A DNA stretch of 64,000 nucleotides. Source: an uncultured Chloroflexia bacterium (GTDB taxonomy: Bacteria > Chloroflexota > Chloroflexia > DTKN01). A program made the position numbers and the translations under genes. Position 1 is the first letter of the stretch, and the number at the start of each line of letters is the position of its first letter. The notes below the pieces were generated by a model that was not told the origin of the DNA, ran no database searches, and saw only the letters and a program-made list of their open reading frames with translations. This document shows, in pieces, positions 27,568-46,156 of the stretch. The stretch is from the NCBI GenBank assembly GCA_964592645.1, contig CAZQFV010000016.1:2282-66281 (forward strand), read 5' to 3'.

Positions 27568-28518
27568 TCACCTCCGCATCAACCTCTCCTCCAACTGCGC
27601 CAGCGCCTCCAGCAGCCCCTCCTTCGTTGCCCCTGGCGTGGTCACCACGGCCACGAACTGCTGCAGGTAGCCGCCCGGGTCCATATCCTCCGGCAGGCCG
27701 GCAAAGAGGCGCGTCCGCTCCCCGGCAAAATAGGCGTCGATCTCGCCCTTGAGCAACCGGCGCAGCGGCTGATCCACGGCCGGCAGGGCCCGCTCCAGCG
27801 CGCGCAGCACCTCCGGGCTGACCGTATAGACGCTGCGGAAGGCCCCCACCAGCCGGGCCACCTGCTCCGGCCGCACCCGCACGTGGCGGTCCACCTGCGG
27901 GATGCTGGGCGCGACCCCCGGCCGGCGCCCTCTGCGCCGGCGCCGCAGCAGCACCAGCCCAGTGATCCCGCCCAGCACAATAGCACCGCCGGCGATGGCC
28001 ACCGGGCCCACCGGCACCACGCCCGCAGCACTCCCCCGGCCGGGCGTCGGCGAAGGGATCACACTCGGGCGTACCTTGGGAGTGCCCGTGGCAATCGCCG
28101 TGGGCAGCACGGTGATCCGGCCCCCGCCGGCCGTCGCCCGGGGGCTCGGCCGCGGCGTCGCGGCTTTCGCGGGAATCGTGGTGGGCGGCACCGGAGCCAG
28201 CGTGAGTGTAGGGCCGGCCGGAGTTGGCGGGACCGGAGTGTCCGGTTTGGCCGTGGGATGCACTGGCTCCGTGGGTACCGGCGTGGGCGGAGCAGGCCCC
28301 TCGGTGGGTGAGGAGGTATCCGTGGGCCACGGCGTTTGGGTCGGCGGCACAGGAGGGACCGGCGTAGCGGTCGCCACGGGCTCCACCGGCGTTTTGGTCG
28401 GCACGAGCGGCGTCTTGGTGGGCGGGGATGGTGGGCCGGCCTGCGCCGGGCCGGCCCACCACCAGATCCCTGCCAGGAGCACCAGGAGGAGCAGCACCCA
28501 CCAACGTCTTGGCCTCAA
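27568..28518 (-). CDS. single-pass membrane protein with a Pro/Thr-rich ectodomain
   Basis: TTG at 28518 follows GGGAGGG. It has a signal-like N-terminus, ~170 aa of P/T-rich sequence, a TM helix (VAIAGGAIVLGGITGLVLL) and a cytoplasmic domain. Confidence 0.55.
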   Translation of the reverse strand: MRPRRWWVLLLLVLLAGIWWWAGPAQAGPPSPPTKTPLVPTKTPVEPVATATPVPPVPPTQTPWPTDTSSPTEGPAPPTPVPTEPVHPTAKPDTPVPPTPAGPTLTLAPVPPTTIPAKAATPRPSPRATAGGGRITVLPTAIATGTPKVRPSVIPSPTPGRGSAAGVVPVGPVAIAGGAIVLGGITGLVLLRRRRRGRRPGVAPSIPQVDRHVRVRPEQVARLVGAFRSVYTVSPEVLRALERALPAVDQPLRRLLKGEIDAYFAGERTRLFAGLPEDMDPGGYLQQFVAVVTTPGATKEGLLEALAQLEERLMRR

Positions 28519-28531
28519 GGTACCCTCCCGG

Positions 28532-31513
28532 TCACTGCTCGCTCGCCGTCAGCGTGTAGACGTTGTCGGTACCACCGGCCTCCGGCAGGTAATCGCGAAC
28601 TTTCAGGTAGTAGCGCCCGCTGGCCGGCGCGCTGATGGTCAGGCAGCTGGCCTTGGTGTACGGATCGCAGTCGTCGTTCTGGGCGAGCAGCGTCGTCCCA
28701 TCGGTATCGTACAGCTCTAGCACCGTGTCAGCGGTGCCGCCGAGGTCGCCAGTGGCAAAAAGGTAGGGCCGGCCAATGGCCAGGTCCACGTAGACCCAGT
28801 CCACGTCGCCCGCCGGGTTGAGGTTATGCTGCTGCACGCCGTCGATGGGTAGCGCTTGCGCCTGCGCCGGCGTACCGTCAGGCTCGTAGCCGTCCACCCA
28901 GAAGCCTCGCAGGACCAGCGGCAGGTAGACGCGATAGACCGGCACGGCCACGACGAGCGGGAACTCGTCCTGCGCCAACCCGCAGACGTTCAGCGCGGTC
29001 AGGGTGATCGTGTACACGCCGGGAGTGCCGTAGCTGTGCGGCACGACTGGGCCGCTCGTGGGCGGCGAGCCATCCCCAAACTCCCAGCTATAGTTGACCG
29101 GGTTGTCGCCGGAAGTCAGCGTCGCCGTAAAGGTCGCCGGCCGGCCGGCCAGCAGCGGCCGCGGGGTGTAGACGATCCCCAGGCCGGCAGGGGCGCGGCA
29201 GTAGGCCACCTCGACCGTCCGGCTGATCGCGTCCGCCCCACAGGCGTTGGTCCCCGTGAGAACGACGGTGTAATTGCCCGTGACCGCATAGGTGTGGAGG
29301 ACCAGCGGGCCGGCCGCCGTCGCCCCATCGCCCAGGTCCCAGGCGTACAAGATGGGGGCCAGCCCTTGGGCCATGCCGACAAAGGTGACCGGCCCACCGG
29401 GATCGGGGCTCGCCGGACTGTAGGTAAAGCTGATCTGCTGGACCGCGCTCAGGATCTCGACCGGGTGCGAGACCACGTCGGTATGAAAGACACTCGTCGC
29501 CGTGAGCGTGGCCGTGTACAGGCCGGCCAGCGCATAGGTGTGGGTGGGGTGCTCGGCCGTGGAAAAGGTGCCATCGCCCAGGTCCCAGTGGTAGGAAAGC
29601 GGGCCGAGACCGCCCTCGGAAGCGTTGGTAAAGACCACCTCGGCCCCCGCGCACACCGGGGAGTTGGTGGAAAAGGCCGCCCGTGGGAGATCGAGCACGG
29701 TGATCGTCCCACTGGCTATGCCCACCCCGCAGCCGGTCGTGCCGGTCAGGAGGATGTCGTACGCACCCGGGAGCGTGTAGGCGTGTGTGACGACCAGCCC
29801 CGTGTCGCGAAAGCCGTCGCCCAGGTCCCAGTCAAAGACGGCCGGCAGCGCCCCGCTGTAGACGGCCGTAAAGGTGACGGCGATCCCCACTTCGGGGGTA
29901 AGCGGCTCGCGGGCCATCCCGACAAGCGGGGCGCCGTGGGCGACGATCTCCTCGCTGTACAGGTCAAAGCCGCACCCGTTCTGCGCCAGCAGCACCACGT
30001 CGTAGAAGCCACCCACTGCCCACGTGTGCGTCGGGTTGGCCAACGGCGAGGACGTGCCGTCGTCAAAGTCCCACTGGTACGACACCGTCCCGCTGGCCAC
30101 CGTCGTGTTGGTGAACGACACCGGCGCCGCGGCACAGACGACCGGCGGGACGTAGGTATACCCGGCGGCCGGAGTGCCCCACACCGTGACCGTGTTGGTG
30201 AAGGTAGCGATGCCGCAGCCGGCCGTAACCGTGAGCATGGCCGTATAGATGCCAGGCTGGTCGTAGCTGTGCACGGGATCGTCCAGCGTGGAGGTCGCGC
30301 CATCGCCAAAGGACCACTGGTAGGAGAACGGCGCCGTTCCCGTGACCGTGCTGGTAAAGTGCACCGGCGTAAAGGCACAGGCCGGTTCGGGCGTGTGGGT
30401 GAACGTTGCCTGGAGGCAGGCCGAGGCATACTTGAGGTCCATGTTGGTGTCGTCGCGGTAACTGATGTGGGGCTGACCGGCACCATCCAGGGAGAGCGAG
30501 TTGTAGGCGCCCAGCGTGCTGCCCGGATCCACCGTCTGGCAGGCCCAGGCCCCCGTGCCGCAGTTTCCCTGTCCCGGGGCGGCATAAGTGGCATACCGCA
30601 GGCCGGCCGGCGACCAGTAGCTCACATGGGGCCGGCCGGCGCCATCTAGCGCCAGCGAGTTGTGGCCATAGGTGCCGATGTCGATCAGGTCATAGTACCA
30701 GGTCCCGCCATTGCGGTACGCGTACTTGAGGTTGGCTCCACCGAGAGAGGCATAGGCAATGTGCGGCCGGCCGCTTGCATCCAGCGCCAGGGACGTATAC
30801 TGTCCCTGATCCAGCCCTGCCTCTACCACCTGGACAATCCAGGATCCCTCGACTGGGTCAAACTCGGCATACTTCAGGCTGCCATTGGTCACGTCAAAGT
30901 AGCTGATGCACGGGCGGTTCGCCGCGCGCAGGGCCAGCGACGTATAGCGCCCCACATCGCCGGCAGAGTCTACCGTTTGGGTGCGCCATCCGCCAACACC
31001 GTAGTACGCGTACCGGAGATTGCCTTCCCCGGCATCATAGTAGCTGATGTGCGGAAAGCCCTGCCCGTCGAACGCCAGGCTGGTCCACTGGCCCGTGTCG
31101 CCGGTTGAATCCACAGTCATCCCGCCAAAGAGATCGGTATACTTCAGGTCACCGTTGGTCGAATCGTAGTAGCTGATGCCGATGTTGCCGGCGGCATAGT
31201 GGGCAATCGAGGTAAAGAGGCCCGTGTCGCCGGCCGCGTCCAACGTCTGGACGACCCAGGATGTGCCGTCGTGCTCGGCGTACTTGAGGTCACTGCTGCC
31301 ATAGTAGCTGACGTGGGGCCGGCCATTGGCATCCAGGACCAGGGCCGTGTACTGGCCAACGTTGCCGGTGGCATCCACCGTCTCGACGTGCCAGGTCCAC
31401 TCCCCGTGAACCGCGGCACCAGCCGGCGCACCATGGCCAACCGCGGGGACCGCTCCCGGCAGGGCCAGGAGCACCAGCAGGGCCACTGTGGTGAGCGCCC
31501 AGGGTACTTTCAT
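28532..31513 (-). CDS. secreted surface protein with ~8 beta-propeller-like repeats, multiple PKD-like domains and a C-terminal pre-peptidase (PPC)-like domain
   Basis: A signal peptide is present. GxYTSLALDxxGRPHISY...LKYA units repeat. PKD-like units match FxxxxxGxxPxxYxWDFGDG. The C-terminus has DVDWVYVDL...YYLKVRDY. Confidence 0.8.
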   Translation of the reverse strand: MKVPWALTTVALLVLLALPGAVPAVGHGAPAGAAVHGEWTWHVETVDATGNVGQYTALVLDANGRPHVSYYGSSDLKYAEHDGTSWVVQTLDAAGDTGLFTSIAHYAAGNIGISYYDSTNGDLKYTDLFGGMTVDSTGDTGQWTSLAFDGQGFPHISYYDAGEGNLRYAYYGVGGWRTQTVDSAGDVGRYTSLALRAANRPCISYFDVTNGSLKYAEFDPVEGSWIVQVVEAGLDQGQYTSLALDASGRPHIAYASLGGANLKYAYRNGGTWYYDLIDIGTYGHNSLALDGAGRPHVSYWSPAGLRYATYAAPGQGNCGTGAWACQTVDPGSTLGAYNSLSLDGAGQPHISYRDDTNMDLKYASACLQATFTHTPEPACAFTPVHFTSTVTGTAPFSYQWSFGDGATSTLDDPVHSYDQPGIYTAMLTVTAGCGIATFTNTVTVWGTPAAGYTYVPPVVCAAAPVSFTNTTVASGTVSYQWDFDDGTSSPLANPTHTWAVGGFYDVVLLAQNGCGFDLYSEEIVAHGAPLVGMAREPLTPEVGIAVTFTAVYSGALPAVFDWDLGDGFRDTGLVVTHAYTLPGAYDILLTGTTGCGVGIASGTITVLDLPRAAFSTNSPVCAGAEVVFTNASEGGLGPLSYHWDLGDGTFSTAEHPTHTYALAGLYTATLTATSVFHTDVVSHPVEILSAVQQISFTYSPASPDPGGPVTFVGMAQGLAPILYAWDLGDGATAAGPLVLHTYAVTGNYTVVLTGTNACGADAISRTVEVAYCRAPAGLGIVYTPRPLLAGRPATFTATLTSGDNPVNYSWEFGDGSPPTSGPVVPHSYGTPGVYTITLTALNVCGLAQDEFPLVVAVPVYRVYLPLVLRGFWVDGYEPDGTPAQAQALPIDGVQQHNLNPAGDVDWVYVDLAIGRPYLFATGDLGGTADTVLELYDTDGTTLLAQNDDCDPYTKASCLTISAPASGRYYLKVRDYLPEAGGTDNVYTLTASEQ

Positions 31514-31531
31514 CGTTGCACCTCCGTGATC

Positions 31532-31981
31532 TCAGGGATAAACCTCGTGCAATGCGCCGACCTCGGCCTCGGCGCTCACTTCGATCCAGACCGGACCGAT
31601 GCCGCCGAACAGATCCTCGGCATTGGCCCCCACGATGACCTCGACGACGTGGCGGTCGTGGTGCAGGTGGATGTGGGTGACCTGCGGGTAGACGCGGCGC
31701 CGGATCAGCCACCCCGCGTTCTGCAGCGCATAGCCCCAAGCCTCGTCGGCCGCATACGGGGCAAAACGCAGCTCCCCGGTCAGCCGATAATAGGCCATGT
31801 CCACGTCCTGGGCGGCGGCCAGCGCCGCCGCGTCGGCCGCGGCGGCAAGGGTGTTGCGCACGTGCAGGTAGCGGCCGATCCCCAAGGTCAGCAGCATCAG
31901 CGGCACCAGGACAAAGGCGGCAAAGTACAGCACGGCGGCGAGAGAGACGCCGCGCCGGCCGCGGCGCAGGACCTTGCTCAT
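31532..31981 (-). CDS. TadG-like (Tad_N) pilus-assembly protein
   Basis: ATG at 31981 lies 6 nt after GGAGGG and overlaps the upstream stop by 1 nt. GVSLAAVLYFAAFVLVPLMLL...LAAAADAAALAAAQD is TadG-like. Confidence 0.6.
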   Translation of the reverse strand: MSKVLRRGRRGVSLAAVLYFAAFVLVPLMLLTLGIGRYLHVRNTLAAAADAAALAAAQDVDMAYYRLTGELRFAPYAADEAWGYALQNAGWLIRRRVYPQVTHIHLHHDRHVVEVIVGANAEDLFGGIGPVWIEVSAEAEVGALHEVYP

Positions 31982-32379
31982 CACCACCCCTCCATCCGCA
32001 TCCGCGTCTGCCCGACCACATTGATGCTGGGCCAGATGAGCGGGACCAACGACGGGACCCGGTAGGACACCCGGCAGAGGAGAAAGCCGTTGCCCGCGCC
32101 GATAAAGACCTCGCGCTCGCCGGGGAGCAGGCCGTACCCCATGGCTTCCTGGCGGGCGGCCTGGCCCGGGTTGGGGCTGACCACTCCGACCCGGCAGCCG
32201 GACCGCGCCGCCTCCTGGACTACCTGGTTGGCGTACACGGTGTAGCCGCCGTTGACCAGGAGCACGACCAGCATAATCAGAATGGGCAGGCCCAGCAGCA
32301 GCTCATACATCTCCACGCCGCCGGAGCGTCCCTCCCGCAGCAGCGCCGGTCCCGGTGGCCGCCGTTTTCTCCTTGCCAT
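31981..32379 (-). CDS. TadE-like pseudopilin
   Basis: ATG at 32379 lies 7 nt after GGAGG. GGVEMYELLLGLPILIMLVVLL...QEAARSGCRVG is TadE-like. Confidence 0.6.
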   Translation of the reverse strand: MARRKRRPPGPALLREGRSGGVEMYELLLGLPILIMLVVLLVNGGYTVYANQVVQEAARSGCRVGVVSPNPGQAARQEAMGYGLLPGEREVFIGAGNGFLLCRVSYRVPSLVPLIWPSINVVGQTRMRMEGW

Positions 32380-32458
32380 TGCCATACCTCCTTCCGGCGG
32401 CCCGCCTGCCGGCGTTGCGTCGGCCTCGGGGCAGGCAGGCCGCCGGTTGCCCGGCGTT

Positions 32459-32665
32459 CTACCCCCAGGAAAAGAGGGTGCTGATGATCCGCCGGCCGAA
32501 ATCCAGGATCGCGCTCCCCAGGAGCCGGTAGACCACCGCCACGATGGCCCCCAGGAGCGCCAGCCCCAGCAGGATCTCGACCATGTCGAGGCCTTTGCGC
32601 CCGCGCAGCAGGCGCGGAACCAGGTTCTGCCACGTCAACTGCCGTCCAAACATTCTTGCCAGCAC
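32459..32665 (-). CDS. flp: Flp-family type IVb pilin
   Basis: GTG at 32665 follows GGAGGTG. The RGRKG/LDMVEILLGLALLGAIVAVV prepilin motif has Glu at +5. Confidence 0.65.
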   Translation of the reverse strand: MLARMFGRQLTWQNLVPRLLRGRKGLDMVEILLGLALLGAIVAVVYRLLGSAILDFGRRIISTLFSWG

Positions 32666-32715
32666 GCTACACCTCCATGCATTTGCTTATTCCTGCCGGA
32701 GCAGGGACCTTGCCG

Positions 32716-33585
32716 CTACATTCCACTGAACAGGGCCAGGACGTTGAGCAGGATCGGCCCCACCACCAGGGCCAGGAAGGGAAGGACGAAGAACACCAGC
32801 AGCACCGGCGTCATCTTGCCGCCCAGGCTGCGCACCCGCCCTTTGGCCGTGTTCAGGTAGGTCCGAAAGGTGTCCTGCGACAGCCCCAGCAGCCGCCGGC
32901 CGGCGTCCACCCCCTGACGCTCGATCTCGGCCAGCTTGACAAAGAGGGCCATCAGCTCGGCCAGGCCCGTTTCCTCGGCGCGGGGCCGCAGGACGTCCAG
33001 GAAGCGCCCACCTTTGGTCTCGGCCTCGCGCTGGGCCCGGCGCAGGAACTCGCCCAGCAGCCCGGGGTAGTCGCCGGCCACCGCCCGCAAGGCCGCTTCC
33101 ACCGTGGTGCCCCCGACGACCTCCAGGGCCAGCCGGTCACTCAGGTCGGGCAGGGAGCGCTGGATCTCGCGCAGGGCCTTCTCCGAGGCCTTGCGCAGCT
33201 GGTTGATCGGCAGGAGCGCGCCCAGGAGCCCAAAGACGAAGGCAAAGATCACGTCGCCCATCACGAGCAGGCCGAACAGCGCCCCGCCCCCGGCCAGGGC
33301 CACGATCAAGGCATAGACCATCGCCCCGGTCCAGCCCAGCCACTGCCCCTGGAAATGCGCCCAGAAGAGCCGGCGCTCCAGGTTGCCGAGCGTTGCGCCG
33401 GGCAGGACCTGGCGCAGCAGGCCGGCCAGCGGCAGCACCAGGGCCTGGCCGAGCGGGATCGTCTCTTCCTCCACGCCGGCCACCAGGCGCAGTTGCGCCT
33501 CCACGGGGGCCCGGCGCAGGGGCAGCAGCTCGTACCCCGCGACCAGCACGGCCAGGCCGAACAGCAGACCGATGATGAGTGGCAT
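32716..33585 (-). CDS. tadC: TadC-like type II secretion system F-family membrane protein
   Basis: ATG at 33585 follows AGGAGGTG. The topology and C-terminus (GKMTPVLLVFFVLPFLALVVGPILLN) are T2SSF-like. Confidence 0.75.
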   Translation of the reverse strand: MPLIIGLLFGLAVLVAGYELLPLRRAPVEAQLRLVAGVEEETIPLGQALVLPLAGLLRQVLPGATLGNLERRLFWAHFQGQWLGWTGAMVYALIVALAGGGALFGLLVMGDVIFAFVFGLLGALLPINQLRKASEKALREIQRSLPDLSDRLALEVVGGTTVEAALRAVAGDYPGLLGEFLRRAQREAETKGGRFLDVLRPRAEETGLAELMALFVKLAEIERQGVDAGRRLLGLSQDTFRTYLNTAKGRVRSLGGKMTPVLLVFFVLPFLALVVGPILLNVLALFSGM

Positions 33586-33594
33586 CTACACCTC

Positions 33595-33972
33595 CTATTT
33601 CCGCCGGCCCGCCCGGGACGGGCAGGGACCGCTATCCGCGCTCCCGGGCGCGGGGCTCACGGCAGGCGGCGGATCGCCGACGTAATAGTCCGGGGACCAG
33701 GACGAACCATTTGTGGTCGGCGTGCCATCGCCGGCGAACGGTTCTGGGCCCAGTTCCGCTGCCGCCAGGCCGCCTCCTGCACTGCCCGGGCAGGTCTCGA
33801 CGATTTGCAGGGCCTGGCACACCAGGCAGAGGGCAAAGCGGCGAAAGGCGATCCAGCCGTCCCGCGACTGGATGACCACATACTGGGTTGGGTCCAACGC
33901 GGGGGCCGGCCCGGTGCCGCCCATGCCCAGCAGGTCAGCCCGGTACTCGCCGCACACGGGGCGGATGCTCAT
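33595..33972 (-). CDS. hypothetical protein
   Basis: ATG at 33972 follows a strong AGGAGGA. Confidence 0.5.
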   Translation of the reverse strand: MSIRPVCGEYRADLLGMGGTGPAPALDPTQYVVIQSRDGWIAFRRFALCLVCQALQIVETCPGSAGGGLAAAELGPEPFAGDGTPTTNGSSWSPDYYVGDPPPAVSPAPGSADSGPCPSRAGRRK

Positions 33973-33982
33973 GGCAGTCCTC

Positions 33983-34165
33983 CTACTTGCCCGCCGCTTT
34001 GAGCTGCTTCCGCAGCAGCCAGAGCGCGACGACGCCCAGCACGGTCAGCACCCCGGCGCTGACGAGAGCAAAGGCGTCCTTGCCAGTCACAAACAAGATC
34101 ACGCCCAACAGGACCAGGATGAACCCACCAACGGCGTACAGTTGCTGCTTTCGCTTTGGTTCCAC
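33983..34165 (-). CDS. small two-TM membrane protein
   Basis: GTG at 34165 lies 5 nt after AAGGAGG. Confidence 0.45.
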   Translation of the reverse strand: MEPKRKQQLYAVGGFILVLLGVILFVTGKDAFALVSAGVLTVLGVVALWLLRKQLKAAGK

Positions 34166-34195
34166 GGCGACCTCCTTGTGTCTTTGCTCGGATCA

Positions 34196-34402
34196 CTATG
34201 GTACGGCATCCCAGGCCAGCGCCTGGGCGAGAACGTATCCCACGCTGATCGTGGATAGAATGATGGTCACATCCGTCAATACCAGCTCGAGCAGGCCGGC
34301 CGCGGTGGGCGCGTGCCGGTAGCGGCACAGCCGCACCCCCGCCACGATCAGCGGCAGCAGAACCGTAAAGTAGTAGATGCGGGTCCCATCTTGCCTGTTC
34401 AT
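34196..34402 (-). CDS. small membrane protein
   Basis: ATG at 34402 overlaps the tadB stop (ATGA). Confidence 0.45.
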   Translation of the reverse strand: MNRQDGTRIYYFTVLLPLIVAGVRLCRYRHAPTAAGLLELVLTDVTIILSTISVGYVLAQALAWDAVP

Positions 34403-35292: not shown

Positions 35293-35305
35293 GGCATCAC
35301 CTCCG

Positions 35306-36679: not shown

Positions 36680-36688
36680 CCGCTTCCC

Positions 36689-38877: not shown

Positions 38878-38890
38878 GGACCGTTCCTCC

Positions 38891-41800
38891 TCAACTGTTT
38901 CCGACCGGATCGAACCCGGCCAGCTCTGTGTCTCCCGGCTCCGCACCGGCGAGCATGCGCGTGCGCACCAGGCTGGGCTCCAGCAGGACCTCGTCGGTCG
39001 AGCGCCCCAGGACTACCACGGCCTCGCCCACCGGCAGGCGGGAGAGGTGCATCAGGTACTCAGGAGCGACCAGGCCGGCCGAGACCTTGGCCATCGCCTC
39101 GACCAGGATCTGCCGGTCGGGGCCGACCTTGAGGCGGAAGACGTAAAAGTTCATACAACTGCTGACGATCTCGAGCGGAAAGGCCGAGGGCGACTGCCCC
39201 AGCCACATCAAGAAGATGCCGTACTTGCGGCTGTCGCGGGCCAGGCTGGAGAAGAGTTCCGATGTCGAGGCTGCCGCCCCCTGGTTGTTCTTCTGCGCCG
39301 GGTTGACGACGACCTTGTTGGCTTCCTCGATGGCCAGAATGAAGCAAGGGGCATCACGGCCGTTGCCCAGGCTGCGGCGGTAGCGCACCCGGCCGGCCTC
39401 ATAGATCTGGGCGATCATTAACCCAAACAGGATGGCCTTTTCCGTCTCGCCCATCGTGCCGCCCTCAAAGACGGCGATCCGGTCGGGAAACATCACCCGG
39501 GTGATGTCGAACGGCGCTTCGTCCTCTTCGAGCGCGGCGTACATCCGCGCCAGCCGGCCCTGGGCCAGCACGCCCAGGCGGTTGAGGATGCCCTGCAAGG
39601 CCTCGACGTCCCGGGCCTGCTTGCGGCCTTCTTTCGCTGCCAGCAGCCCGCGCAGCGCCCGGTACCAGCGGCCGAAATCGACCGGTCGGCTGCGCCGGCA
39701 GGCGACGCGATGGCGGACCCGCTCCGCGCAGTCCTGCAGATAGATGCGGCCGTCGGCCCGGGGGGCGGGTAGCGCGTACCCCTCCACTTCCAGGCGGGCC
39801 ACCTCGGTGGGACCCAGGCGCGAACGCTCCAGGCGCGCCGCGTGCTCCTCCTCCGCGTTCTGGCGGCGCCTGGCGCCGATCTCGGGTGGGGTGGGGTCCA
39901 GCTGCTCCACGTCAAAGGTCAGCGCGCCCTCGTCCAGGTACATCTGGCGCAGCGTGTCCCGCAGAAAGCCCTTCTGCCGCTCTCCCAGGCCGCCGGCGTT
40001 GCAGATCACGTCCACCGTCATGGCCATTTGCGCCTCGGGGTCCACGTCCAGGATGAACTGCAGCGGGTTCCAGCGCACCGGCCGTGGGCCGCCCGGGTAC
40101 AGGCTGTGGTAGACGAAGCGCTCCGGCGGAACGACCCGCACCATCTTGCGATAGTTCAGGCCCCAGTCAAAGACCACGGCCGGCATCGCCCAGCGCTGGT
40201 TCATCTCCTGCAGCAGGTGCATCGTCGCTTCGCTCTTGCCGTAGCCCGAGTCGCCAAAGATGCCGAAATGCCCCATGCGCTCGCGGGTCAGGAGATACGG
40301 CACGTCCAGCTCCTCGCCCGTCTCGTAGGAGATAAACTGCCCCAGGCTCACCACGTCCTGGCGCTCGCTCGCTATGCCCAGCAGGCCGGGACCGTAGACG
40401 GCGTAGGGCGGGATGGCCTCCTTGGTGGTCGTGGCCCGGCCGCCTTCAAAGACCGCCGGGGAGACCAGGGCGGCAAAGTGGAGCATGGGCAGCATGTTGC
40501 CAAAGCGCAGCCCCTCAAAGACCCCGAGGGAGCGTTCCTGGTGGGGAGGGGGCGAGAAGGAGAGCAGCCAAGGCCGGACGTTCTGGACTTCTTCGGAGGA
40601 AAGCACCAGCGCCCGCGCCGGCGTCACCACGTTGTCGGTCTGCCCGTGAAAGGCCAGGGCATAGAGGCCGGCCGCGGCCCGCAGCGCCTCGGCCGAGGGG
40701 AAGAACCAGAACGATTCCGACATGTACGCCCCGGTCAACATCATCTCGTCCAGGAGGCTCAGGCCGCGCTCAAAGAGGTTGGCCACGGCCTGGGCGGTGG
40801 CATCTTTCCACATGTACGACTTGACCAGCGAGAGGCCGGCCGACACCCCGGTGGACATGCCTCCGGCCTGCGTCACCACCCGCGCCAGGCCCGTCCCGAT
40901 GCTCGTGCCGTCGGCCACCCCTTGCGATGTCGTGTCGCCCACGCTCTTGCCTTCCTGGTGCGACCAGGCTTCGCTCTCGGTGTCGGTGACGCTGCGGCTC
41001 TCGGCGTGGCTCTCCGATGCGGTGTCGGAGACGCTGCGCTCGTGCGTGGCCCCGGAAGCCCACATCGTGGAAACGGCCAGCCCCTGCGAGGTGGAGGCTT
41101 CCCGCGAGACGGTGTCGCTCTCCGAGCGCGTGTCGGAGTGGGTCTCGCCGTCCGTCGTGCCGTGGGTGGAGGAGCTCATCGAGGCATGGGCGGTGGTTGT
41201 CTGGTCCACGATGACGCTCTCGGAGTGGGCGACGTTTGTCCCCGTCGTCTGGGATTGGGACGCGGTATCTTGGGTAGACGCGGTGTGTGTGTCGGAGCTG
41301 CCTGTCCCTCCCGAGAGGCCGAATGTACCCGATGCCTGGCGGCTGTCGGTGTGCTGGGTACCGCTCCCGACCGCGGTGGCCTCCCCCGTGGCCTCGGAAC
41401 GGTTCCAGGTGTGGTGGTAATCGGCCGTGGCCCCGACGCTGGCGATGCCGGGGACGCCTCCGCTGACCGAGACGCTGCCGCCGGCCGTGTCGGCGCTGCC
41501 CTCGGTGGAGGTGCGGCTGCTGGTGTGCTGGGTGGTGGCACTCTGCCCGTCCGCGCTGCCGTGGCCGACCGTGGCGCTGGCCTGCCAACCGCTCTGGCTG
41601 GATTCGCCGCGGGCGTCGGACGCCCCTTGCGCATGGCTCGTGCCCTGGGTGGTCGTGTGGATCTGCGTCACCCCGGTCGTCTCGGTGCGCCCGGTGGTGT
41701 GCGATTCGCTGGAGGAACCGCCGGAGGTGGAAGAGCGCGACACCGCGTGCTCCGTGCCGTCGGTGTGGGCCGTCCCCACGCTGTGGGCCGTGCCCTCTGC

Positions 41801-42928
41801 CTGCGCCGTGCCGGCCGACTCGGTGCGGCTGCCCCCGGCAGAGGACATGGTTCCGTGGGACTCGCCTTCGGTATGGGCCCGGCCCTGGGTGTCGGTGACC
41901 GTGGTCCCGACGGCGTGGGCCGTCCCGTGGGTGTAGCCGTCGGCGATGGAGGTGCCCTCGCTGTGCGCCGTGCCCGCGCTGATGACGTGCGAGCGACCCT
42001 CCTCGTAGGAGGTGCTGCGGCCGGCCGTGTCCATGCCGGAAAAGACGGTGGGGATGGCAAAGTTCAGGGCGACGCTCTTTTGCCCCTGCACGCGGCTGAG
42101 CCAGATGCTGGCCTCCTCCCGCCAGCGCTGCTGCAGGCGGAAGATGGCCTCGCGGGGAATGCCCCAGGCCAACGTCACGCAGGCAAAGTCCAGGAGCGCG
42201 CGCTGCAGGCCGCGAAAGATGAGCTCGTTCTGTTCCAGCGTCTCCTCGGCCCGTGCTTCTGCTTTGCCCCCGGCAGTTCTTTCCCCGATCGCCCGCGTGC
42301 CCTGCTCGCGCGGGTCGGGCTGGCCGATGGCCACAAAGGCGTGGGTGAACCCGGCCAGCGATCGGGCAACGAAATCCCGCTCTTCCTCGGCCATCGGCAC
42401 GAAGCGCGACTGCGGGATTGTGCGCAGGTTGGCCAGGAGCGCGGTAAAAGCCTCGCTGCCCCGCGCGATGGCCTCCTCCGCGGTCGCCGCCGTCCCCTGC
42501 GCGGCGTACACCTGCACCAGGCCCAGCGGGCGCTCGCCCAGTTGCCCAAACATCCCGGCCACGATCACCAGCAGGTTGACGTCGGCGTTGTACAGGCCCT
42601 TGAGCATCCGGGCGGAGCGCTGCAGCACGGTGGTCTGGTCGCGCATCTGGCGGGGGAGGTATTCCAGGACGGTGGGAAAGACGGCCTTGTACCAGGGCCG
42701 GCCGTCCGCGCCCAGGCCCAGCACCGGGTCCACGCCGGCGACCTGCAGCAAAAAGTAGCGCAGCCGGCCGCCGCCCCGTACCGAGTCGAGCACCGGGGTC
42801 ACCCCCAGCACGGCCGGCGCCGGGATGGCCGGCGCAACCTCGTCCCAGCCGAGGAGGGTAATCCCGGCCCGGACGATCTTGCTCTGCCGCGCGCCCTGGA
42901 CCAGCCGGTCCAGGAAGGTCACCGCCAT
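38891..42928 (-). CDS. 1345-aa FtsK/HerA/VirB4-class ATPase with an unknown N-domain and a ~400-aa low-complexity insert
   Basis: ATG at 42928 follows GAGAGGA. Walker A GIFGDSGYGKSE and Walker B CFILAIEEANK are present. The ARDSRKYGIFLMWLGQSP segment is typical of DUF87/VirB4/HerA-type NTPases. Confidence 0.8.
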   Translation of the reverse strand: MAVTFLDRLVQGARQSKIVRAGITLLGWDEVAPAIPAPAVLGVTPVLDSVRGGGRLRYFLLQVAGVDPVLGLGADGRPWYKAVFPTVLEYLPRQMRDQTTVLQRSARMLKGLYNADVNLLVIVAGMFGQLGERPLGLVQVYAAQGTAATAEEAIARGSEAFTALLANLRTIPQSRFVPMAEEERDFVARSLAGFTHAFVAIGQPDPREQGTRAIGERTAGGKAEARAEETLEQNELIFRGLQRALLDFACVTLAWGIPREAIFRLQQRWREEASIWLSRVQGQKSVALNFAIPTVFSGMDTAGRSTSYEEGRSHVISAGTAHSEGTSIADGYTHGTAHAVGTTVTDTQGRAHTEGESHGTMSSAGGSRTESAGTAQAEGTAHSVGTAHTDGTEHAVSRSSTSGGSSSESHTTGRTETTGVTQIHTTTQGTSHAQGASDARGESSQSGWQASATVGHGSADGQSATTQHTSSRTSTEGSADTAGGSVSVSGGVPGIASVGATADYHHTWNRSEATGEATAVGSGTQHTDSRQASGTFGLSGGTGSSDTHTASTQDTASQSQTTGTNVAHSESVIVDQTTTAHASMSSSTHGTTDGETHSDTRSESDTVSREASTSQGLAVSTMWASGATHERSVSDTASESHAESRSVTDTESEAWSHQEGKSVGDTTSQGVADGTSIGTGLARVVTQAGGMSTGVSAGLSLVKSYMWKDATAQAVANLFERGLSLLDEMMLTGAYMSESFWFFPSAEALRAAAGLYALAFHGQTDNVVTPARALVLSSEEVQNVRPWLLSFSPPPHQERSLGVFEGLRFGNMLPMLHFAALVSPAVFEGGRATTTKEAIPPYAVYGPGLLGIASERQDVVSLGQFISYETGEELDVPYLLTRERMGHFGIFGDSGYGKSEATMHLLQEMNQRWAMPAVVFDWGLNYRKMVRVVPPERFVYHSLYPGGPRPVRWNPLQFILDVDPEAQMAMTVDVICNAGGLGERQKGFLRDTLRQMYLDEGALTFDVEQLDPTPPEIGARRRQNAEEEHAARLERSRLGPTEVARLEVEGYALPAPRADGRIYLQDCAERVRHRVACRRSRPVDFGRWYRALRGLLAAKEGRKQARDVEALQGILNRLGVLAQGRLARMYAALEEDEAPFDITRVMFPDRIAVFEGGTMGETEKAILFGLMIAQIYEAGRVRYRRSLGNGRDAPCFILAIEEANKVVVNPAQKNNQGAAASTSELFSSLARDSRKYGIFLMWLGQSPSAFPLEIVSSCMNFYVFRLKVGPDRQILVEAMAKVSAGLVAPEYLMHLSRLPVGEAVVVLGRSTDEVLLEPSLVRTRMLAGAEPGDTELAGFDPVGNS
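40829..42031 (-). repeat. coding low-complexity region (Ser/Thr/Gly/His/Ala-rich degenerate repeats; residues ~300-700 of the ATPase)
   Basis: Recurrent units include GTAHSEGTS, GTAHAVGTT, GRAHTEGES and GTAHSVGTAHTDGTEHAV. By inspection there is no Lys or Cys between residues ~300 and ~660. Confidence 0.8.
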
Positions 42929-42940
42929 GGCCGTATCCTC

Positions 42941-43660
42941 TCAAAAGATGCCCCGCTGCCGGCGGCCGACCACGTCGAAGAGGATCTCTTCCAACGTGGC
43001 GAAGCGAAAGGCCGGGCTCTGCCGCAGCACGGTGAACTCTTTCCACACGTAGGTGACGAACCCGCCCGGCACGGCGAACAGGGCCAGGATCAGCAGTGCC
43101 AGGTTGACGTAGCCGGCGTTGCGGGCCAGGACCGAAGCGGCCCCTTCCGGCGAGAGGCCGGTCGAGGCGGCCCACTCGGAGATCGTCCCCAGGTTAAAGG
43201 CCCAGCCGGCCAGTCGCAATACCCAGAGCATGCCGACCTCGCCGAGCACAAAGGTGCGCGTGCGCGAGATCATGTCCGCCCGCTTCATTCGCAGGAGCGC
43301 CGAGGCGGTTCCACCGAGCAGCCACATCAACAGGAGGATCACATCTACGGTGCCGGGGAAGACCAGGGCCGTGACCAGCGCCGCGGCCAGCACCAGGAGC
43401 AGGCGGAGCGTGCGGCGGGCCAGGACCTGCCGGGGCCGGCTGAACGGGTTGGCCGGCCCCGGCCGCAGCCCGCTGATGGCATAGCCCTCCACCTCGGCCT
43501 GCGGCGCTTCCACCAGCCGCACCAGGACCAAAACCAGGGGGATCTGCAGCAGGGCCAGCAGGTTCTCCCAGCAGAAGTAGACCACCAGGAGCAACCCGTT
43601 CAGCAGCGCGATGCCGGCGGTGCGCAGCAGCTCAACTACCGTGTCCAACAGTGCCCCCAC
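42941..43660 (-). CDS. polytopic membrane protein (possible VirB6-like role; function unknown)
   Basis: It has several hydrophobic helices. The start is uncertain: GTG at 43660 lacks an SD, while the TTG four codons downstream has GGGGG upstream. Confidence 0.55.
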   Translation of the reverse strand: MGALLDTVVELLRTAGIALLNGLLLVVYFCWENLLALLQIPLVLVLVRLVEAPQAEVEGYAISGLRPGPANPFSRPRQVLARRTLRLLLVLAAALVTALVFPGTVDVILLLMWLLGGTASALLRMKRADMISRTRTFVLGEVGMLWVLRLAGWAFNLGTISEWAASTGLSPEGAASVLARNAGYVNLALLILALFAVPGGFVTYVWKEFTVLRQSPAFRFATLEEILFDVVGRRQRGIF

Positions 43661-43715
43661 ACGAGAAAGAGCGTCCCCCCATGCCCAGGTGCGGGCACGA
43701 AAACGGGGGACGCTC
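43661..43715 (-). terminator. intra-operon hairpin + U-tract (attenuator/terminator candidate)
   Basis: An 11-bp perfect stem (43670-43680 / 43705-43715) is followed on the minus strand by TTTCTCGTG. Confidence 0.4.
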
Positions 43716-43769
43716 AGGTCCGCGCGTATGCACTTGTCCCGGCGATGACCCCGGTGCCTGGGCCGGCGC

Positions 43770-44162
43770 CTACCACCGGGGAGTCAATTCCCTGATGCCC
43801 AGTATCTCCTGCACTCGATGCGCGTCCAGGGCCTTGCCGGTGGCCAGGTCCACGGGCCGGCCGTCGCAGACACCGACCCGCCATCCTGCCTCATCCAGCC
43901 CATCCTGGAAGAGCAGCGCGTGGTCCACCACCACCAGGCCGGCCGGCCGCCCATCCTGGAAGCGGATGTTGTAGGCCTCGGCCTGGCCCCCGGCGATGCT
44001 GCGGATCCACCGGGTTACCTGGCCCAGTTCGGCGGGTGAAGGCGTATCCAGGCTCACGGTCACGGCCACCAGCGCGGCGCCGCACCGTCCACAGCGCACC
44101 AGCCCATCCCGCACCAGCAGCTTGTTGCACGCCGGGCAGCGCCCCGGTTCCCAGGAGATCAC
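43770..44162 (-). CDS. zinc-ribbon protein
   Basis: GTG at 44162 lies 6 nt after GGAGG. The motif is CPACNKLLVRDGLVRCGRCG. Confidence 0.55.
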   Translation of the reverse strand: MISWEPGRCPACNKLLVRDGLVRCGRCGAALVAVTVSLDTPSPAELGQVTRWIRSIAGGQAEAYNIRFQDGRPAGLVVVDHALLFQDGLDEAGWRVGVCDGRPVDLATGKALDAHRVQEILGIRELTPRW

Positions 44163-44174
44163 GGCCAGCCTCCG

Positions 44175-45398
44175 TTACTTGATCAGCGTCACGCCAAAGG
44201 CCGTGACGCCGACGCGGGGCAGCGGGATGGGAAAGTGGCCGGCCACCCCATAGTCCGTCACCACCATCAGGTCCACCTGGTACCAGCCCGGGTCCTCGAC
44301 GGCGAGCTGGCCGCAGCCATAGGCCCGGTAGGTGAGGTTTTCCAGGGGGCCGACTACTTCCCAGGGCCACGCCGGGGCGGGCGGGACCTCCCAATCGGGG
44401 TGCTGGACGCGCACGCCGAACTTGGGGCCGAGGACAGCGCCGATCCAGTCCTTGCTCTCCTCGGTCAGCTTCATGAAGCCGCTCGTTTCACCCACGGCCG
44501 GCGGGTCCGGGCTACGCGTGACCTCGGTGTGCTCGACGATCGTGCCCTCGTAGCACTGGTTGGGCTGCCCCGGCGGATGCTGGCAGGTGTACCAGTGGTG
44601 GATGTGCTCGACCGGCCAGGTCGTGACGGTGAAGCAGAGCGTCACCCCCATCCCCGCAGGATCCTGCCCGACGATCACGGGGAAGGGCGGGTAGTACCCG
44701 AGCGAAAGGGCGGGCGGCGTGGTATGGTCCTCGTCCCAGGGGTCCGGCAGCGGGACGATGGGTCGCTCCGTGGCCGGCGGCCGGGTCGGGCGGTCGGGTG
44801 GATCGGTGGCCGGCGGCTGCGTAGGCACACCTGGGGTCTCATTGCCGCCTCCGCCCCCACCTCCACCGCCGGCATCGCGGCAGTTGCGGTCGTCCGGCCC
44901 AAAGTTGGAATAGTCGCCGGCCATACTGGTCCAGACCTCGCGCCAGATCTCCACCTGGCAGGGCGGGGCGCCACCACAGTCGCCATCGTTGTAGGAGATG
45001 TAGCGGTTGGTCAGCGTCCAACCGCCCTCCCAGGTGGAGTTGTGGTACCAGGTGCCGGCCGACCACTGCCCGTCGGCGCAGAGCAGCCGGTTCCAGCGGC
45101 CCACCGGGGGATAGGGTGGCGCATCGTCGCCGACGCCGTGCCCGAGGTTGACGCGGTCAGGGATCTTTTCAAAGATGGCCCGCTGGTCGGCGGGAGTCCA
45201 GTCCGTCCCGCAGTCGCCGCTGTTATTGCACCAGGTCGAATGGATGACGTACTGGATGTGCACCCAGCCGGGCGGGGCCGACTCCTCCCGGACGTAGAAC
45301 ACCCAGTAGTCCTCGGCCTGCGCCGGTGGGGTAGCCGCCAGCAGCCCCGGCACGAGAACGAGCAAGATGGCGACGATTCCAATACCGCGTTTCCACAT
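44175..45398 (-). CDS. secreted protein with poly-Gly and Pro/Thr linkers
   Basis: ATG at 45398 follows AAGGAGG. The signal peptide is MWKRGIGIVAILLVLVPGLLAATPPAQA. A GGGGGGGG run is present. Confidence 0.6.
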   Translation of the reverse strand: MWKRGIGIVAILLVLVPGLLAATPPAQAEDYWVFYVREESAPPGWVHIQYVIHSTWCNNSGDCGTDWTPADQRAIFEKIPDRVNLGHGVGDDAPPYPPVGRWNRLLCADGQWSAGTWYHNSTWEGGWTLTNRYISYNDGDCGGAPPCQVEIWREVWTSMAGDYSNFGPDDRNCRDAGGGGGGGGGNETPGVPTQPPATDPPDRPTRPPATERPIVPLPDPWDEDHTTPPALSLGYYPPFPVIVGQDPAGMGVTLCFTVTTWPVEHIHHWYTCQHPPGQPNQCYEGTIVEHTEVTRSPDPPAVGETSGFMKLTEESKDWIGAVLGPKFGVRVQHPDWEVPPAPAWPWEVVGPLENLTYRAYGCGQLAVEDPGWYQVDLMVVTDYGVAGHFPIPLPRVGVTAFGVTLIK

Positions 45399-45419
45399 GG
45401 CTGCCTCCTTGGAGCCTTC

Positions 45420-45926
45420 TCAACGCACCAGGTAGACGACGATCTCTTCGGCGATGCCATTGGCCGGGGCCGGCCGCAGGACGTATCCCAAACCCACCCC
45501 AGCGAGATCGGGGGATGTGATTAGAGGGAGGGCCGGCTGCTGCGGGTCCAGGACGGTGAACCAGCGGCGGTAGCAGGGGTCCTCGGGCGGCTCTTCCTCC
45601 GGAGTCACCCGCACGACCCCGCCGCCCAGGGCTTCGATCCGCTGCATGGCCTGCCACTCGTTGGCCGCGAATAGCTCGGCCAGCTCCTGGGCCTGGCGCA
45701 TCAGGCCGGGGTCCGGATCCAGCGGAGACCGGCCGGCCTGGGCCCGCAGGCAGTTCACGTGGGCCAGGATGGCCTCCTGCTGCGGGGTGAGCTGCGCGGC
45801 GCCGATGCTCAGCACAATCACCACCACGGCTCCCAGGACCAGGACGACGAGTCCGGCAATGGCGATCTGCCGCCAGGTGACGGCTTCGTAGTACCCGCGT
45901 TCGGGCGAGAACCTGCGCAACGGCAT
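45420..45926 (-). CDS. membrane-anchored CAP/SCP-like protein (tentative)
   Basis: ATG at 45926 follows GGAGGAAAGAG. A TM helix is followed by HVNCLRAQAGRSPLDPDPGLMRQAQELAELFA, which is CAP-like. Confidence 0.5.
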   Translation of the reverse strand: MPLRRFSPERGYYEAVTWRQIAIAGLVVLVLGAVVVIVLSIGAAQLTPQQEAILAHVNCLRAQAGRSPLDPDPGLMRQAQELAELFAANEWQAMQRIEALGGGVVRVTPEEEPPEDPCYRRWFTVLDPQQPALPLITSPDLAGVGLGYVLRPAPANGIAEEIVVYLVR

Positions 45927-45940: not shown

Positions 45941-46000
45941 CAAACAAAAAGCGATGCCTCCGCGGGCACGGCCGGAGCCGTTTACCCGCGCGGGCATCGC
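45941..46000 (-). terminator. rho-independent terminator-like hairpin + TTTTTGTTTG in the leader of the transfer operon
   Basis: The minus-strand stem is GCGATGCC..CGCGGG / CCCGCG..GGCATCGC (8 + 6 bp with a 2x2 internal loop). The U-tract lies at 45950-45941, only 14 nt before the CAP-gene ATG. Confidence 0.65.
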
Positions 46001-46127: not shown

Positions 46128-46156
46128 AGTATAGCATGCCGCATTGCCGTTGTCAA
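46128..46156 (-). promoter_or_regulatory. consensus-like sigma-70 promoter TTGACA-N17-TATACT
   Basis: On the minus strand the -35 lies at 46156-46151 and the -10 at 46133-46128. The spacer is exactly 17 nt. Confidence 0.6.

Follow-up and report, generated by a model that had tools for sequence, protein, structure and literature searches.

A Tad/Flp Pilus Operon with a Giant HerA/VirB4-Class ATPase on a Mobile Element of Chloroflexota: A Candidate Non-Canonical DNA-Transfer Module

Introduction

Type IVc pili of the Tad/Flp type are represented by the tad locus of Aggregatibacter and the cpa locus of Caulobacter. In a 64,000-nucleotide (nt) stretch of DNA from an uncultured Chloroflexia bacterium (contig CAZQFV010000016.1), an operon was recognized in which Tad/Flp genes are combined with the gene for a 1345-amino-acid (aa) ATPase of the HerA/VirB4 class, and this operon is the subject of the present analysis. 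The whole 64,000-nt stretch is called the window, and all coordinates are positions in it. An initial annotation, a first reading made from the sequence alone, had proposed that the operon is part of a hybrid apparatus for DNA transfer. The components shared with the classical Tad loci are CpaB/RcpC, a CpaE/TadZ-like protein, CpaF/TadA, TadB, TadC, a Flp prepilin with the G/xxxxE processing site, TadE/TadG and an A24 prepilin peptidase. The window differs from the classical loci in that the secretin RcpA/CpaC was not found, the peptidase gene is 8 kb off, and the HerA/VirB4-class ATPase is encoded in the same operon together with polytopic and secreted proteins that classical loci lack.

In the type IV secretion systems (T4SS) that serve conjugation, VirB4 is the signature subunit (PMC12857230). 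[quoted passage not shown] In contrast to a T4SS, it has no detectable VirB3, VirB6, VirB8, VirB9, VirB10, or VirD4, its ATPase shows no match to the VirB4 N-terminal Pfam family, a 400-aa Ser/Thr-rich insert splits the ATPase domains, and the filament is Tad, not VirB2/VirB5. The conjugative plasmid R64 encodes a type IV pilus, the thin pilus, that is used in mating (PMC12102498). R64 differs from the present locus by also carrying a complete canonical T4SS. PAPI-1 is presumably a similar case, with a type IVb pilus on an element that also carries a complete canonical T4SS. The Gram-positive plasmid pXO16 is transferred by conjugation through the non-canonical tip locus, with two ATPases and a hydrolase and with no recognisable relaxase (PMC9673590); no tblastn similarity was found between pXO16 and the window ATPase.

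A "DNA translocation operon" was described by Pathria et al. 2012 from the Bacillus jumbo phage 0305phi8-36 and from SPO1 (PMC3357382). In 0305phi8-36, orf200 is a MOBC-like relaxase with a helix-turn-helix (HTH) and orf201 is a large translocase; membrane proteins are encoded as well. The function of the operon is itself a prediction only (PMC3357382). Both loci encode a large ATPase, membrane proteins, and an HTH nuclease, which is of the MOBC type in the phage and a candidate for that type in the window, and the window ATPase aligns to orf201. The phage locus differs in lacking Tad genes and the Ser-rich insert, and there is no similarity at the BLAST level. The archaeal Ced/Ted systems with their Ups pili likewise have a HerA/VirB4-class ATPase, polytopic and small membrane proteins (comparable in size and topology only), and a type IV pilus for contact. 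Ced differs in being chromosomal and in importing DNA; the similarity covers the P-loop only, and in the window the pilus and ATPase genes share one operon on a mobile element.

Results

Tad/Flp Genes and a Giant ATPase in One Operon

On the minus strand, 18 open reading frames (ORFs) form an unbroken chain from 45926 down to 27568, with intergenic gaps of -7 to 109 nt. Their codon-position G+C is of the coding type in a window whose G+C is about 69%, and most of the starts have a GGAGG-type ribosome-binding site in front. The chain of 18 co-directional genes described in the initial annotation is therefore real, and both overlaps that it pointed out (TGATG at 38045-38049 and ATGA at 34399-34402) are found in the sequence. 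The core of the operon consists of the following genes:

42941..43660, minus strand: 239-aa polytopic membrane protein with about 5-6 transmembrane segments
38891..42928, minus strand: 1345-aa ATPase composed of an N-terminal domain, a low-complexity region, and a P-loop motor (NF033849, DUF87, AlphaFold2 model)
38047..38877, minus strand: CpaB/RcpC (SAF and RcpC domains) with an N-terminal membrane anchor (RcpC 2e-13, TIGR03177 2e-24)
36689..38047, minus strand: CpaE/TadZ-like ATPase of the ParA/MinD type with an N-terminal extension (weak matches below the Pfam cut-offs; position kept across loci, as counted below)
35306..36679, minus strand: CpaF/TadA secretion ATPase of the VirB11 superfamily (T2SSE, PF00437, 1e-34)
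34399..35292, minus strand: TadB-like platform protein with 3 transmembrane segments (iterative hidden Markov model (HMM) search)
32716..33585, minus strand: TadC platform protein (T2SSF, PF00482, 6e-7)
32459..32665, minus strand: Flp-type prepilin, 68 aa, with a predicted class III cleavage site G/LDMVE and Glu at +5, read from the sequence
31981..32385, minus strand: TadE-like pseudopilin (Pfam 2e-7)
31532..31987, minus strand: Tad/TadG-like pseudopilin (Pfam 2e-6)

The Tad set named in the initial annotation was recovered in part by profile: CpaB, CpaF, TadC, TadE, and the TadG-like protein have matches, the CpaE-like protein matches weakly, and TadB and the Flp prepilin (32459..32665) have no Pfam match. 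TadB is recognized solely as a TadC paralogue through iterative HMM searches, with the same 3-transmembrane topology. The best NCBIfam match of CpaF is TIGR03819, "TadA family conjugal transfer-associated ATPase" (9e-51, below the cut-off). No domain of the secretin RcpA/CpaC was found in any window protein scanned. The secretin is the outer-membrane component, and the lack of it would be in keeping with an envelope of one membrane.

Conservation and Horizontal Spread of the Module

A word-indexed protein search with the ATPase revealed 39 clusters of relatives, mostly from metagenome-assembled genomes (MAGs) of Chloroflexota. In a separate scan of one genome per species, for which an alignment of 10 sequences served as the query, relatives were found in 225 species-representative genomes. 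Among the matches listed, these genomes belong almost all to Chloroflexota (Anaerolineae, Caldilineaceae, Thermoflexia, Chloroflexia, and Ktedonobacter), and Levilinea saccharolytica, Longilinea arvoryzae, and Flexilinea flocculi are isolates among them. In several MAGs, 2-3 copies are present.

ORFs were called in 85 loci, with flanks of up to 10 kb in view, and iterative HMM searches were seeded with each window protein. Downstream genes were counted in the 53 loci with at least 6 kb of downstream sequence and upstream genes in the 59 loci with at least 3 kb of upstream sequence:

CpaB downstream of the ATPase, same strand: 47/53 loci
CpaE downstream of the ATPase, same strand: 48/53 loci
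CpaF downstream of the ATPase, same strand: 47/53 loci
TadB/C downstream of the ATPase, same strand: 38/53 loci
Polytopic membrane protein directly upstream of the ATPase, same strand: 57/59 loci
Family of the 407-aa secreted protein upstream of the ATPase, same strand: 51/59 loci, in Chloroflexota
Family of the window gene 51266-52615 upstream of the ATPase, same strand: 22/59 loci
SSB upstream of the ATPase, same strand: 13/59 loci

Independent gene calls with Pfam tags agree with these results, and even the most remote ATPase homologue (23% identity) adjoins a Tad cluster. The co-occurrence of Tad genes and this ATPase in other genomes, which had been proposed as a check in the initial annotation, is not limited to this window, with CpaB, CpaE, and CpaF each present in 47-48 of the 53 loci.

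The isolates Levilinea saccharolytica and Flexilinea flocculi have a module of ~11.4 kb in common at ~94% nucleotide identity, while their flanks are unalignable, which indicates recent transfer between genera. A further variation was observed among Anaerolineaceae genera that share the ~94%-identical module: in one locus (L057, 14268-15491), compared with four others (L051, L082, L048, and L060), ~1.2 kb after the ATPase and CpaB is swapped for unalignable sequence. This segment could be a hypervariable cassette and a specificity determinant.

In PLSDB, the ATPase family was found on three Bacillota megaplasmids. On Alkaliphilus pB6464 and Ruminococcus albus pRUMAL01, the 5' part of the module encodes an SSB, an unnamed gene, a homologue of the window gene 51266-52615, a small membrane protein, and the serine-rich ATPase. 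The ATPase is followed by a gene at the CpaB position, CpaE, CpaF, TadB, TadC, an A24 peptidase, and TadE. The gene at the CpaB position has a weak match to the CpaB profile in pB6464 only, and Flp is annotated in pB6464 only. Genes for DnaE and a primase are close to the module on both plasmids. On a Pontibacillus plasmid (L095, 8070-13704), a 999-aa Ser-rich ATPase is encoded together with an SSB and a protein of 4 transmembrane segments, with no adjacent Tad cluster, and Priestia megaterium pFDU301A (L097, 12108-23748) encodes an SSB, a 661-aa homologue of the nuclease, and a Tad cluster without the giant ATPase. These partial modules suggest that the pilus, ATPase, and DNA-processing units are separable and have been repeatedly joined on mobile replicons. 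MOB-suite classifies the module-bearing plasmids as non-mobilizable or mobilizable, never as conjugative. A megablast search of PLSDB with the operon gave no match. Gene content, family assignments, conserved synteny, the plasmid or mobile-element location, and horizontal spread are thus direct observations.

Outside Chloroflexota and Bacillota, very few homologues of the ATPase were seen. One, on a 5.4-kb contig of a MAG labelled Desulfuromonas sp. (L067), reflects an error of binning or else transfer out of these two phyla. An Armatimonadota MAG (P0029) also contains an ATPase homologue.

The ATPase Family

The 1345-aa ATPase is a full-length member of NF033849 (743.8 bits against a cut-off of 650; residues 78-1337). 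The family name "ser_rich_anae_1, serine-rich protein" is descriptive, and NCBI gives no function. The only Pfam match is DUF87 around Walker A, and there is no match to PF03135 (the VirB4 N-terminal family) or AAA_10. The N-terminal domain (residues 1-300) contains the invariant motifs GQPDPR and QNE. Residues ~300-700 are of low complexity, with 18.5% Ser, 18% Thr, 14% Gly, and 6% His, and residues ~860-1345 form the motor, with Walker A GDSGYGKSE and Walker B-like AIEEANK. Neither a signal peptide nor a transmembrane segment is predicted, and the Ser/Thr/Gly/His-rich region is presumably cytoplasmic. Motifs similar to G-x-(S/A)-H-(T/S)-x-G recur in this region, which is kept in both Chloroflexota and Bacillota homologues.

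The AlphaFold2 model of residues 690-1345 has a pLDDT of 80.7. Against the PDB, its best matches are HerA (4d2i, 3.5e-13) and anti-phage HerA proteins. The C-terminal domain of DndH is matched with a TM-score of 0.75 relative to the target, and Thermoanaerobacter VirB4 (4ag6) ranks 35th (E 1e-10; TM-score 0.66 relative to the target). The fold of the C-terminal part is thus closer to HerA than to VirB4. For the N-terminal domain, the model has a pLDDT of 66 overall and 85-94 in the core. All of its fold matches are weak, and 10 of the 13 top ones are TrwK/VirB4 chains of the R388 T4SS; a sequence-profile search of the PDB with this domain returned nothing.

Similarity to characterized families at the sequence level is partial. 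The NCBIfam HerA models match ~120 C-terminal residues with 19-38 bits (cut-offs 800-970), the PADLOC HerA matches are also partial, and the P-loop matches the NCBIfam CedD model NF053655 (1e-7, 31 bits against a cut-off of 600) over 48 residues. The alignment of the ATPase family with orf201 of phage 0305phi8-36 by hhalign extends from Walker A to the C-terminus (probability 81%, E 1.2e-5, 385 columns). In a fold search of BFVD with the motor, large ATPases from the Bacillus phages JL and G rank at the top, along with a protein named "conjugal transfer protein" and with A7KUX5, whose length equals that of orf201 (802 aa).

The initial annotation had assigned the protein to the HerA/VirB4/DUF87 type, and this assignment is borne out by the DUF87 match and by the fold matches of the model to HerA, the C-terminal domain of DndH, and VirB4. 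It had also allowed that profiles might place the ATPase in an already defined mating-pair formation class; no profile does so. In our view, the models argue for a motor of the HerA/VirB4 branch of the FtsK-HerA superfamily in a VirB4-like two-domain layout, and the protein is at most a candidate member of VirB4 proper. The family NF033849 is already catalogued by NCBI, and its linkage to Tad is not described in the literature found. In the literature searched (for the family name, Tad with HerA, conjugation, Chloroflexi, and Tad components, including a T4SS review of December 2025), neither the NF033849 family, its association with Tad, nor a machine of this kind was found described.

Candidate Relaxase and Other Putative DNA-Processing Genes

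Upstream of the operon, the element encodes several proteins that could act on DNA or on the pilins:

51266..52615, minus strand: 449-aa coiled-coil protein that also has a winged helix similar to PadR/MarR and, at the C-terminus, a PD-(D/E)xK-type motif set (profile and conservation)
52628..53203, minus strand: 191-aa coiled-coil protein anchored in the membrane, encoded between the SSB-like and nuclease genes (ORF call, topology)
53172..53828, minus strand: SSB-like OB-fold protein, 218 aa (profile)
53825..54238, minus strand: prepilin peptidase (Peptidase_A24), 137 aa (Pfam on the identical gene in metagenome contig L088)

The prepilin peptidase and the 449-aa protein were absent from the initial annotation. 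Gene calls of the identical element in metagenome contigs revealed the peptidase gene and also that of a 635-aa protein, likewise not listed before. The N-terminus of the 449-aa protein is a coiled coil, and its winged helix was recognized through a PadR-like profile match in the PDB (7e-4). The motif set consists of H312, P352-D353, E367, E369, and K389. Among 20 members of the family, H312, D353, E367, E369, and K389 are invariant and P352 is present in at least 90%; among 100 members, D353 is invariant and the other motif residues are present in at least 90%. In a set of 1.84 billion representatives, 373 clusters (50% identity) belong to this family. Its recurrent Pfam matches other than coiled coils are PadR, Replic_Relax, AHJR-like, VRR_NUC, and Hjc, all of them sub-threshold.

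MOBC relaxases, such as TraX of pAD1 and MobC of CloDF13, are a relaxase class related to PD-(D/E)xK endonucleases (PMC12857230). When the nuclease family is aligned with the MOBC-like orf200 of the phage, the H, PD, and ExE/D positions coincide. The product of 51266-52615 is therefore a candidate MOBC-like relaxase, with the right architecture and with matches below the profile threshold. No relaxase of the HUH, HD, Rep_trans, or tyrosine-recombinase type was found in the window proteins. The initial annotation had recognized no relaxase; this stands for canonical relaxases, and as a general statement it is probably wrong because the candidate is encoded 5.3 kb upstream of the operon.

Within the replication block, dnaB and the ssb-like gene flank the gene for the A24 peptidase, which is ~8 kb from the Tad operon, and the peptidase presumably serves the pilins of the operon. 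In three other loci (L003, L086, and L087), the interval between the SSB and nuclease genes contains an unnamed gene, compared by position alone.

Remaining Operon Products, Promoter and Leader

The other products of the operon and the signals in front of it are as follows:

46128..46156, minus strand: sigma-70-type promoter TTGACA-N17-TATACT with a TG extension (11/12 match)
45945..46000, minus strand: terminator-like hairpin (GCGATGCC...GGCATCGC then TTTTTGTTT) in the leader sequence
45420..45926, minus strand: 168-aa protein with an N-terminal membrane anchor (ORF call, topology)
44175..45398, minus strand: 407-aa secreted Cys-/Pro-rich protein, of the family counted above
43770..44162, minus strand: 130-aa zinc-ribbon protein, CxxC...CxxC (ORF call)
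34196..34402, minus strand: 68-aa small membrane ORF (composition, topology)
33983..34165, minus strand: 60-aa protein that spans the membrane twice, its ORF preceded by a strong ribosome-binding site (composition, topology)
33595..33972, minus strand: 125-aa ORF with a ribosome-binding site, coding status less certain (ORF call)
28532..31513, minus strand: 993-aa secreted protein with a repeat region and six PKD domains (Pfam)
27568..28518, minus strand: 316-aa Pro-rich membrane protein, the final gene of the operon (ORF call, topology)

The four genes upstream of the ATPase (168, 407, 130, and 239 aa) have no relative in Pfam, NCBIfam, PADLOC, or the sequences of the PDB, and no profile confirmed the "CAP-like" proteins of the initial annotation. 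The 239-aa polytopic protein has weak homologues on Bacillota plasmids and is a candidate inner-membrane partner or channel of the ATPase. The zinc-ribbon gene is missing from two contigs (L004 and L005) whose ATPase is 94% identical, and it is kept in two contigs with the identical element (L088 and L089); this suggests a recent gain or loss within the operon. The 993-aa PKD protein, a candidate adhesin, has a sub-threshold match to PPC (23.6 bits against a cut-off of 25.9). It is present in 5 of the 85 loci and thus belongs to the variable part of the module. One ORF of the initial annotation, 33969-34412, is non-coding-like, with an arginine-rich translation and high second-position G+C, and is therefore replaced by the small membrane ORFs 34196-34402 and 33983-34165.

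The promoter proposed in the initial annotation agrees with the consensus at 11 of 12 positions and is extended by a TG; in 19.8 kb, only 2 sites, this one included, are promoter-like. The leader between it and the first gene of the operon is ~200 nt long. The leader hairpin is G+C-rich, is followed by a T-run, and adjoins the first ribosome-binding site directly, a possible attenuator-like or riboswitch-like arrangement. Rfam gave no match to the leader, either at the gathering threshold over the whole window or at E <= 1 with the leader alone. With these minor corrections, the observations of the initial annotation are confirmed as a whole.

The Surrounding Element

The genes from ParA (58654) to the end of the operon (27568) are all co-directional and form a 31-kb array. 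Its order is ParA, ParB, DnaB, the A24 peptidase, the SSB-like protein, the anchored coiled-coil protein, and the nuclease, followed by a 249-aa protein, a small DnaD_N/MarR-like protein, a 635-aa protein, a secreted protein, a DUF433 protein, and the operon. Two features of the array outside the operon and the DNA-processing genes are:

54243..58654, minus strand: element backbone with DnaB (54243-55538), ParB (56578-57816), and ParA (57806-58654) (profile)
47962..49869, minus strand: 635-aa protein with a DnaD/HTH-type N-terminus read from the sequence (no profile match)

The N-terminus of the 635-aa protein suggests a replication initiator. Three palindromic 18-nt sites (ACGCGAACTGGGGTTCGC and variants) are located at 49269-49353, 23 and 44 nt apart, in the linker region of its gene. 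These sites may function as iterons, as an operator, or as repeats bound by a relaxase.

Past the operon, a tyrosine recombinase, toxin-antitoxin-like pairs, AbiEii, a second SSB, a DUF6094-methyltransferase/SNF2 protein, an AEP/PriS-type primase, and a beta clamp are encoded. The right end of the array is flanked by a tRNA-Gly and an HTH_17 (excisionase-type) gene. ParA, ParB, DnaB, SSB (two genes), the beta clamp, and the primase (AEP-type) of the initial annotation were confirmed, and RadC received no profile support. Searches of the backbone proteins against PHROGs, NCBIfam, and PADLOC added only the AEP/PriS-type primase and an SSB; for ten unassigned proteins, PHROGs returned one primase, one SSB, and two families of unknown function.

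Accessory genes are found at 12838-16362, 10108-11295, 5780-7486, and 21341-22084, encoding the methyltransferase-SNF2 protein, the primase, a PDC-S27-like protein, and AbiEii. In the first of these proteins, a DUF6094 methyltransferase is fused to an SNF2 helicase (1174 aa), and a protein of the element with an ATPase and an Mrr nuclease matches PDC-S27 of PADLOC. In mobile elements, genes of these kinds suit the leading region or cargo for anti-restriction or defence.

Two copies of a 120-nt direct repeat with 92% identity, at 25453-25572 and 26532-26651, bracket two small overlapping ORFs, and the segment may be a small inserted cassette:

25609-25998, plus strand: ORF between the two repeat copies
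25977-26438, minus strand: ORF between the two repeat copies

Discussion

It is proposed, with a probability of about 0.5, that the operon is the transfer module of the mobile element and encodes a non-canonical apparatus of the conjugation type. From the gene content we infer DNA transfer, each of its functional steps, and the direction of DNA movement. Three units would work together. One would be a monoderm-style Tad/Flp type IVc pilus without a secretin, its prepilin peptidase being encoded elsewhere on the element. Another would be a membrane-associated DNA translocase composed of the 1345-aa ATPase and the small polytopic membrane protein. The last would be the DNA-processing set encoded upstream, with the SSB, the anchored coiled-coil protein, and the winged-helix and PD-(D/E)xK nuclease. 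The nuclease would bind the DNA of the element and, as MOBC relaxases do, nick it at an origin of transfer, and the displaced strand would be coated by the SSB. A hexameric ATPase docked on the polytopic protein would then pump the DNA across the donor membrane, and it may double as a VirB4-like and a coupling ATPase. The Flp pilus, perhaps tipped with the PKD adhesin, would find and draw in the recipient or form a conduit that spans the envelope.

The hybrid apparatus of the initial annotation is strengthened by the conserved coupling of Tad genes and ATPase, by movement between genera, and by the company of an SSB and a MOBC-resembling nuclease. It is nevertheless regarded as partly supported, because transfer is something we infer, one ORF was wrong, a relaxase candidate exists, and the ATPase family was already catalogued.

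Several observations weigh against the transfer module. Neither a VirD4/TcpA-type coupling protein, a canonical relaxase, nor VirB3, VirB6, VirB8, VirB9, or VirB10 was detected in the ~60 window proteins. The initial annotation had already reported that VirD4-type proteins and VirB8/9/10 homologues are lacking, and Pfam and NCBIfam found none in the window proteins; the window contains no second ATPase of the FtsK/VirD4 type either. The VirB4-like similarity of the N-terminal domain is weak (E 7e-3, TM-score ~0.22), and when the ATPase family is compared with R388 TrwK by hhalign, the alignment is confined to Walker A, with no signal in the N-terminal domain. Replic_Relax (PF13814) is matched by 3 of 20 and 6 of 100 members of the nuclease family, at best with a sub-threshold 5.6e-4, and not by the window protein, and the hhalign comparison of the family with the MOBC-like phage orf200 gives a probability of 20% (E 1e-3). 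An att repeat of the tRNA-Gly 3' end was not found in the window. Many copies of the ATPase are chromosomal, integrases are present in only 3 of the 85 loci within the flanks available, and the nuclease and SSB are found within 10 kb in ~37% and ~22% of the Chloroflexota loci, respectively. The initial annotation had considered that the locus might be fixed in chromosomes of relatives without replication and partition genes; this is partly answered by the many chromosomal relatives, in a view of up to 10 kb of flank. Tad pili are classically adhesins, and a mobile adhesion island would spread in the same pattern.

Such an island is the main rival to transfer. The operon would then be an ordinary adhesive or motility Tad island riding mobile elements, and the ATPase and its membrane partner would be accessory to pilus biogenesis, protein secretion, or surface display. 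The canonical Tad components, the PKD-rich surface protein near the operon end, the secreted or anchored proteins encoded upstream, the many chromosomal copies, and the failure to find a coupling protein or canonical relaxase in the window are all in its favor, and it accounts for the pilus, the adhesin, and the horizontal spread. We consider it rather unlikely all the same, since classical Tad systems do without a HerA/VirB4-class ATPase and all matches of the ATPase are DNA-acting or T4SS motors. Moreover, the linkage to SSB and the winged-helix nuclease occurs in two phyla, even without the ATPase, and the unit of ATPase, membrane protein, and SSB occurs without an adjacent Tad cluster. The same proteins could also serve import or exchange of DNA, as in the archaeal Ced/Ted systems with Ups pili or in Thermus transjugation, where the pilus would aggregate or capture and the ATPase with its partner would pull DNA in. 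SSB is also used in DNA uptake. The layout of Ced and Ups is echoed by the combination of an ATPase and a type IV pilus with polytopic and small membrane proteins, the Walker A region matches CedD, and type IV pili are needed for Ced-mediated import, as cited in PMC12102498. This explanation is judged improbable: the CedD match is short, no ComEC/ComEA/DprA-type genes were seen in the window, and carriage on plasmids or mobile elements together with a relaxase-like nuclease fits donor functions.

Defence and virus readings were rejected for their missing partners and the genomic context. A HerA-based anti-phage defence, or another DNA surveillance system, that is merely located beside a pilus operon is very improbable. 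The best PDB and PADLOC matches of the ATPase C-terminus are indeed anti-phage HerA proteins, and the element contains AbiEii, SNF2/methyltransferase, and PDC-S27-like genes. However, the HerA matches are far under the family cut-offs, no Sir2, DUF4297, or NurA partner is encoded in the operon or the window, and the tight conserved linkage is with Tad genes and the membrane protein, not with effectors. Hardly any probability is given to a virus-like element with the ATPase as a packaging motor of the FtsK/HerA (A32/PRD1-type) kind. In its favor, the fold search of viral models finds large ATPases of Bacillus jumbo phages along with packaging ATPases, and the element encodes its own replication proteins. 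As the initial annotation had noted for capsid, terminase, and portal genes, Pfam detected none of these in the window, nor tail genes, and PHROGs found none among the ten unassigned proteins. Searches of 2.9 million IMG/VR contigs and 50,697 GenBank phage genomes gave no relative of the ATPase, and tblastn with the Bacillota nuclease and ATPase homologues against phage genomes returned nothing. The jumbo-phage homologue itself is a non-essential gene of the "DNA translocation operon", not a packaging motor (PMC3357382).

The module is interpreted as conjugation-type machinery built on a VirB4/HerA-class motor, here joined to a Tad pilus. Somewhat more tentatively than transfer itself, and at less than even odds, it may represent a new class of conjugation system in at least two phyla, Chloroflexota and Bacillota, in which a Tad platform takes the place of the VirB2-VirB10 scaffold, one ATPase with a 400-residue Ser/Thr/Gly/His-rich insert serves as both secretion and coupling motor, and the relaxase is a winged-helix PD-(D/E)xK protein. 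Conjugation systems are found and classified by profiles of VirB4, VirD4, and relaxases. With detection based on such profiles, and with the MOB-suite labels "non-mobilizable" and "mobilizable", current mobilome surveys do not see such elements. The hypothesis is directly testable because there are cultivated carriers, namely R. albus 7, Alkaliphilus sp. B6464, Priestia megaterium FDU301, Levilinea, Flexilinea, and Longilinea.

If the proposal is true, it would provide a function for the catalogued but unexplained family NF033849 and add a new architecture to the families of type IV filaments and of type IV secretion systems. Anaerolineae and Caldilineaceae, which have the module most often, are common members of the communities in sludge and sediment, and no transfer system of either group turned up in the literature searched. 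The module would then be a candidate route of gene flow in Chloroflexota.

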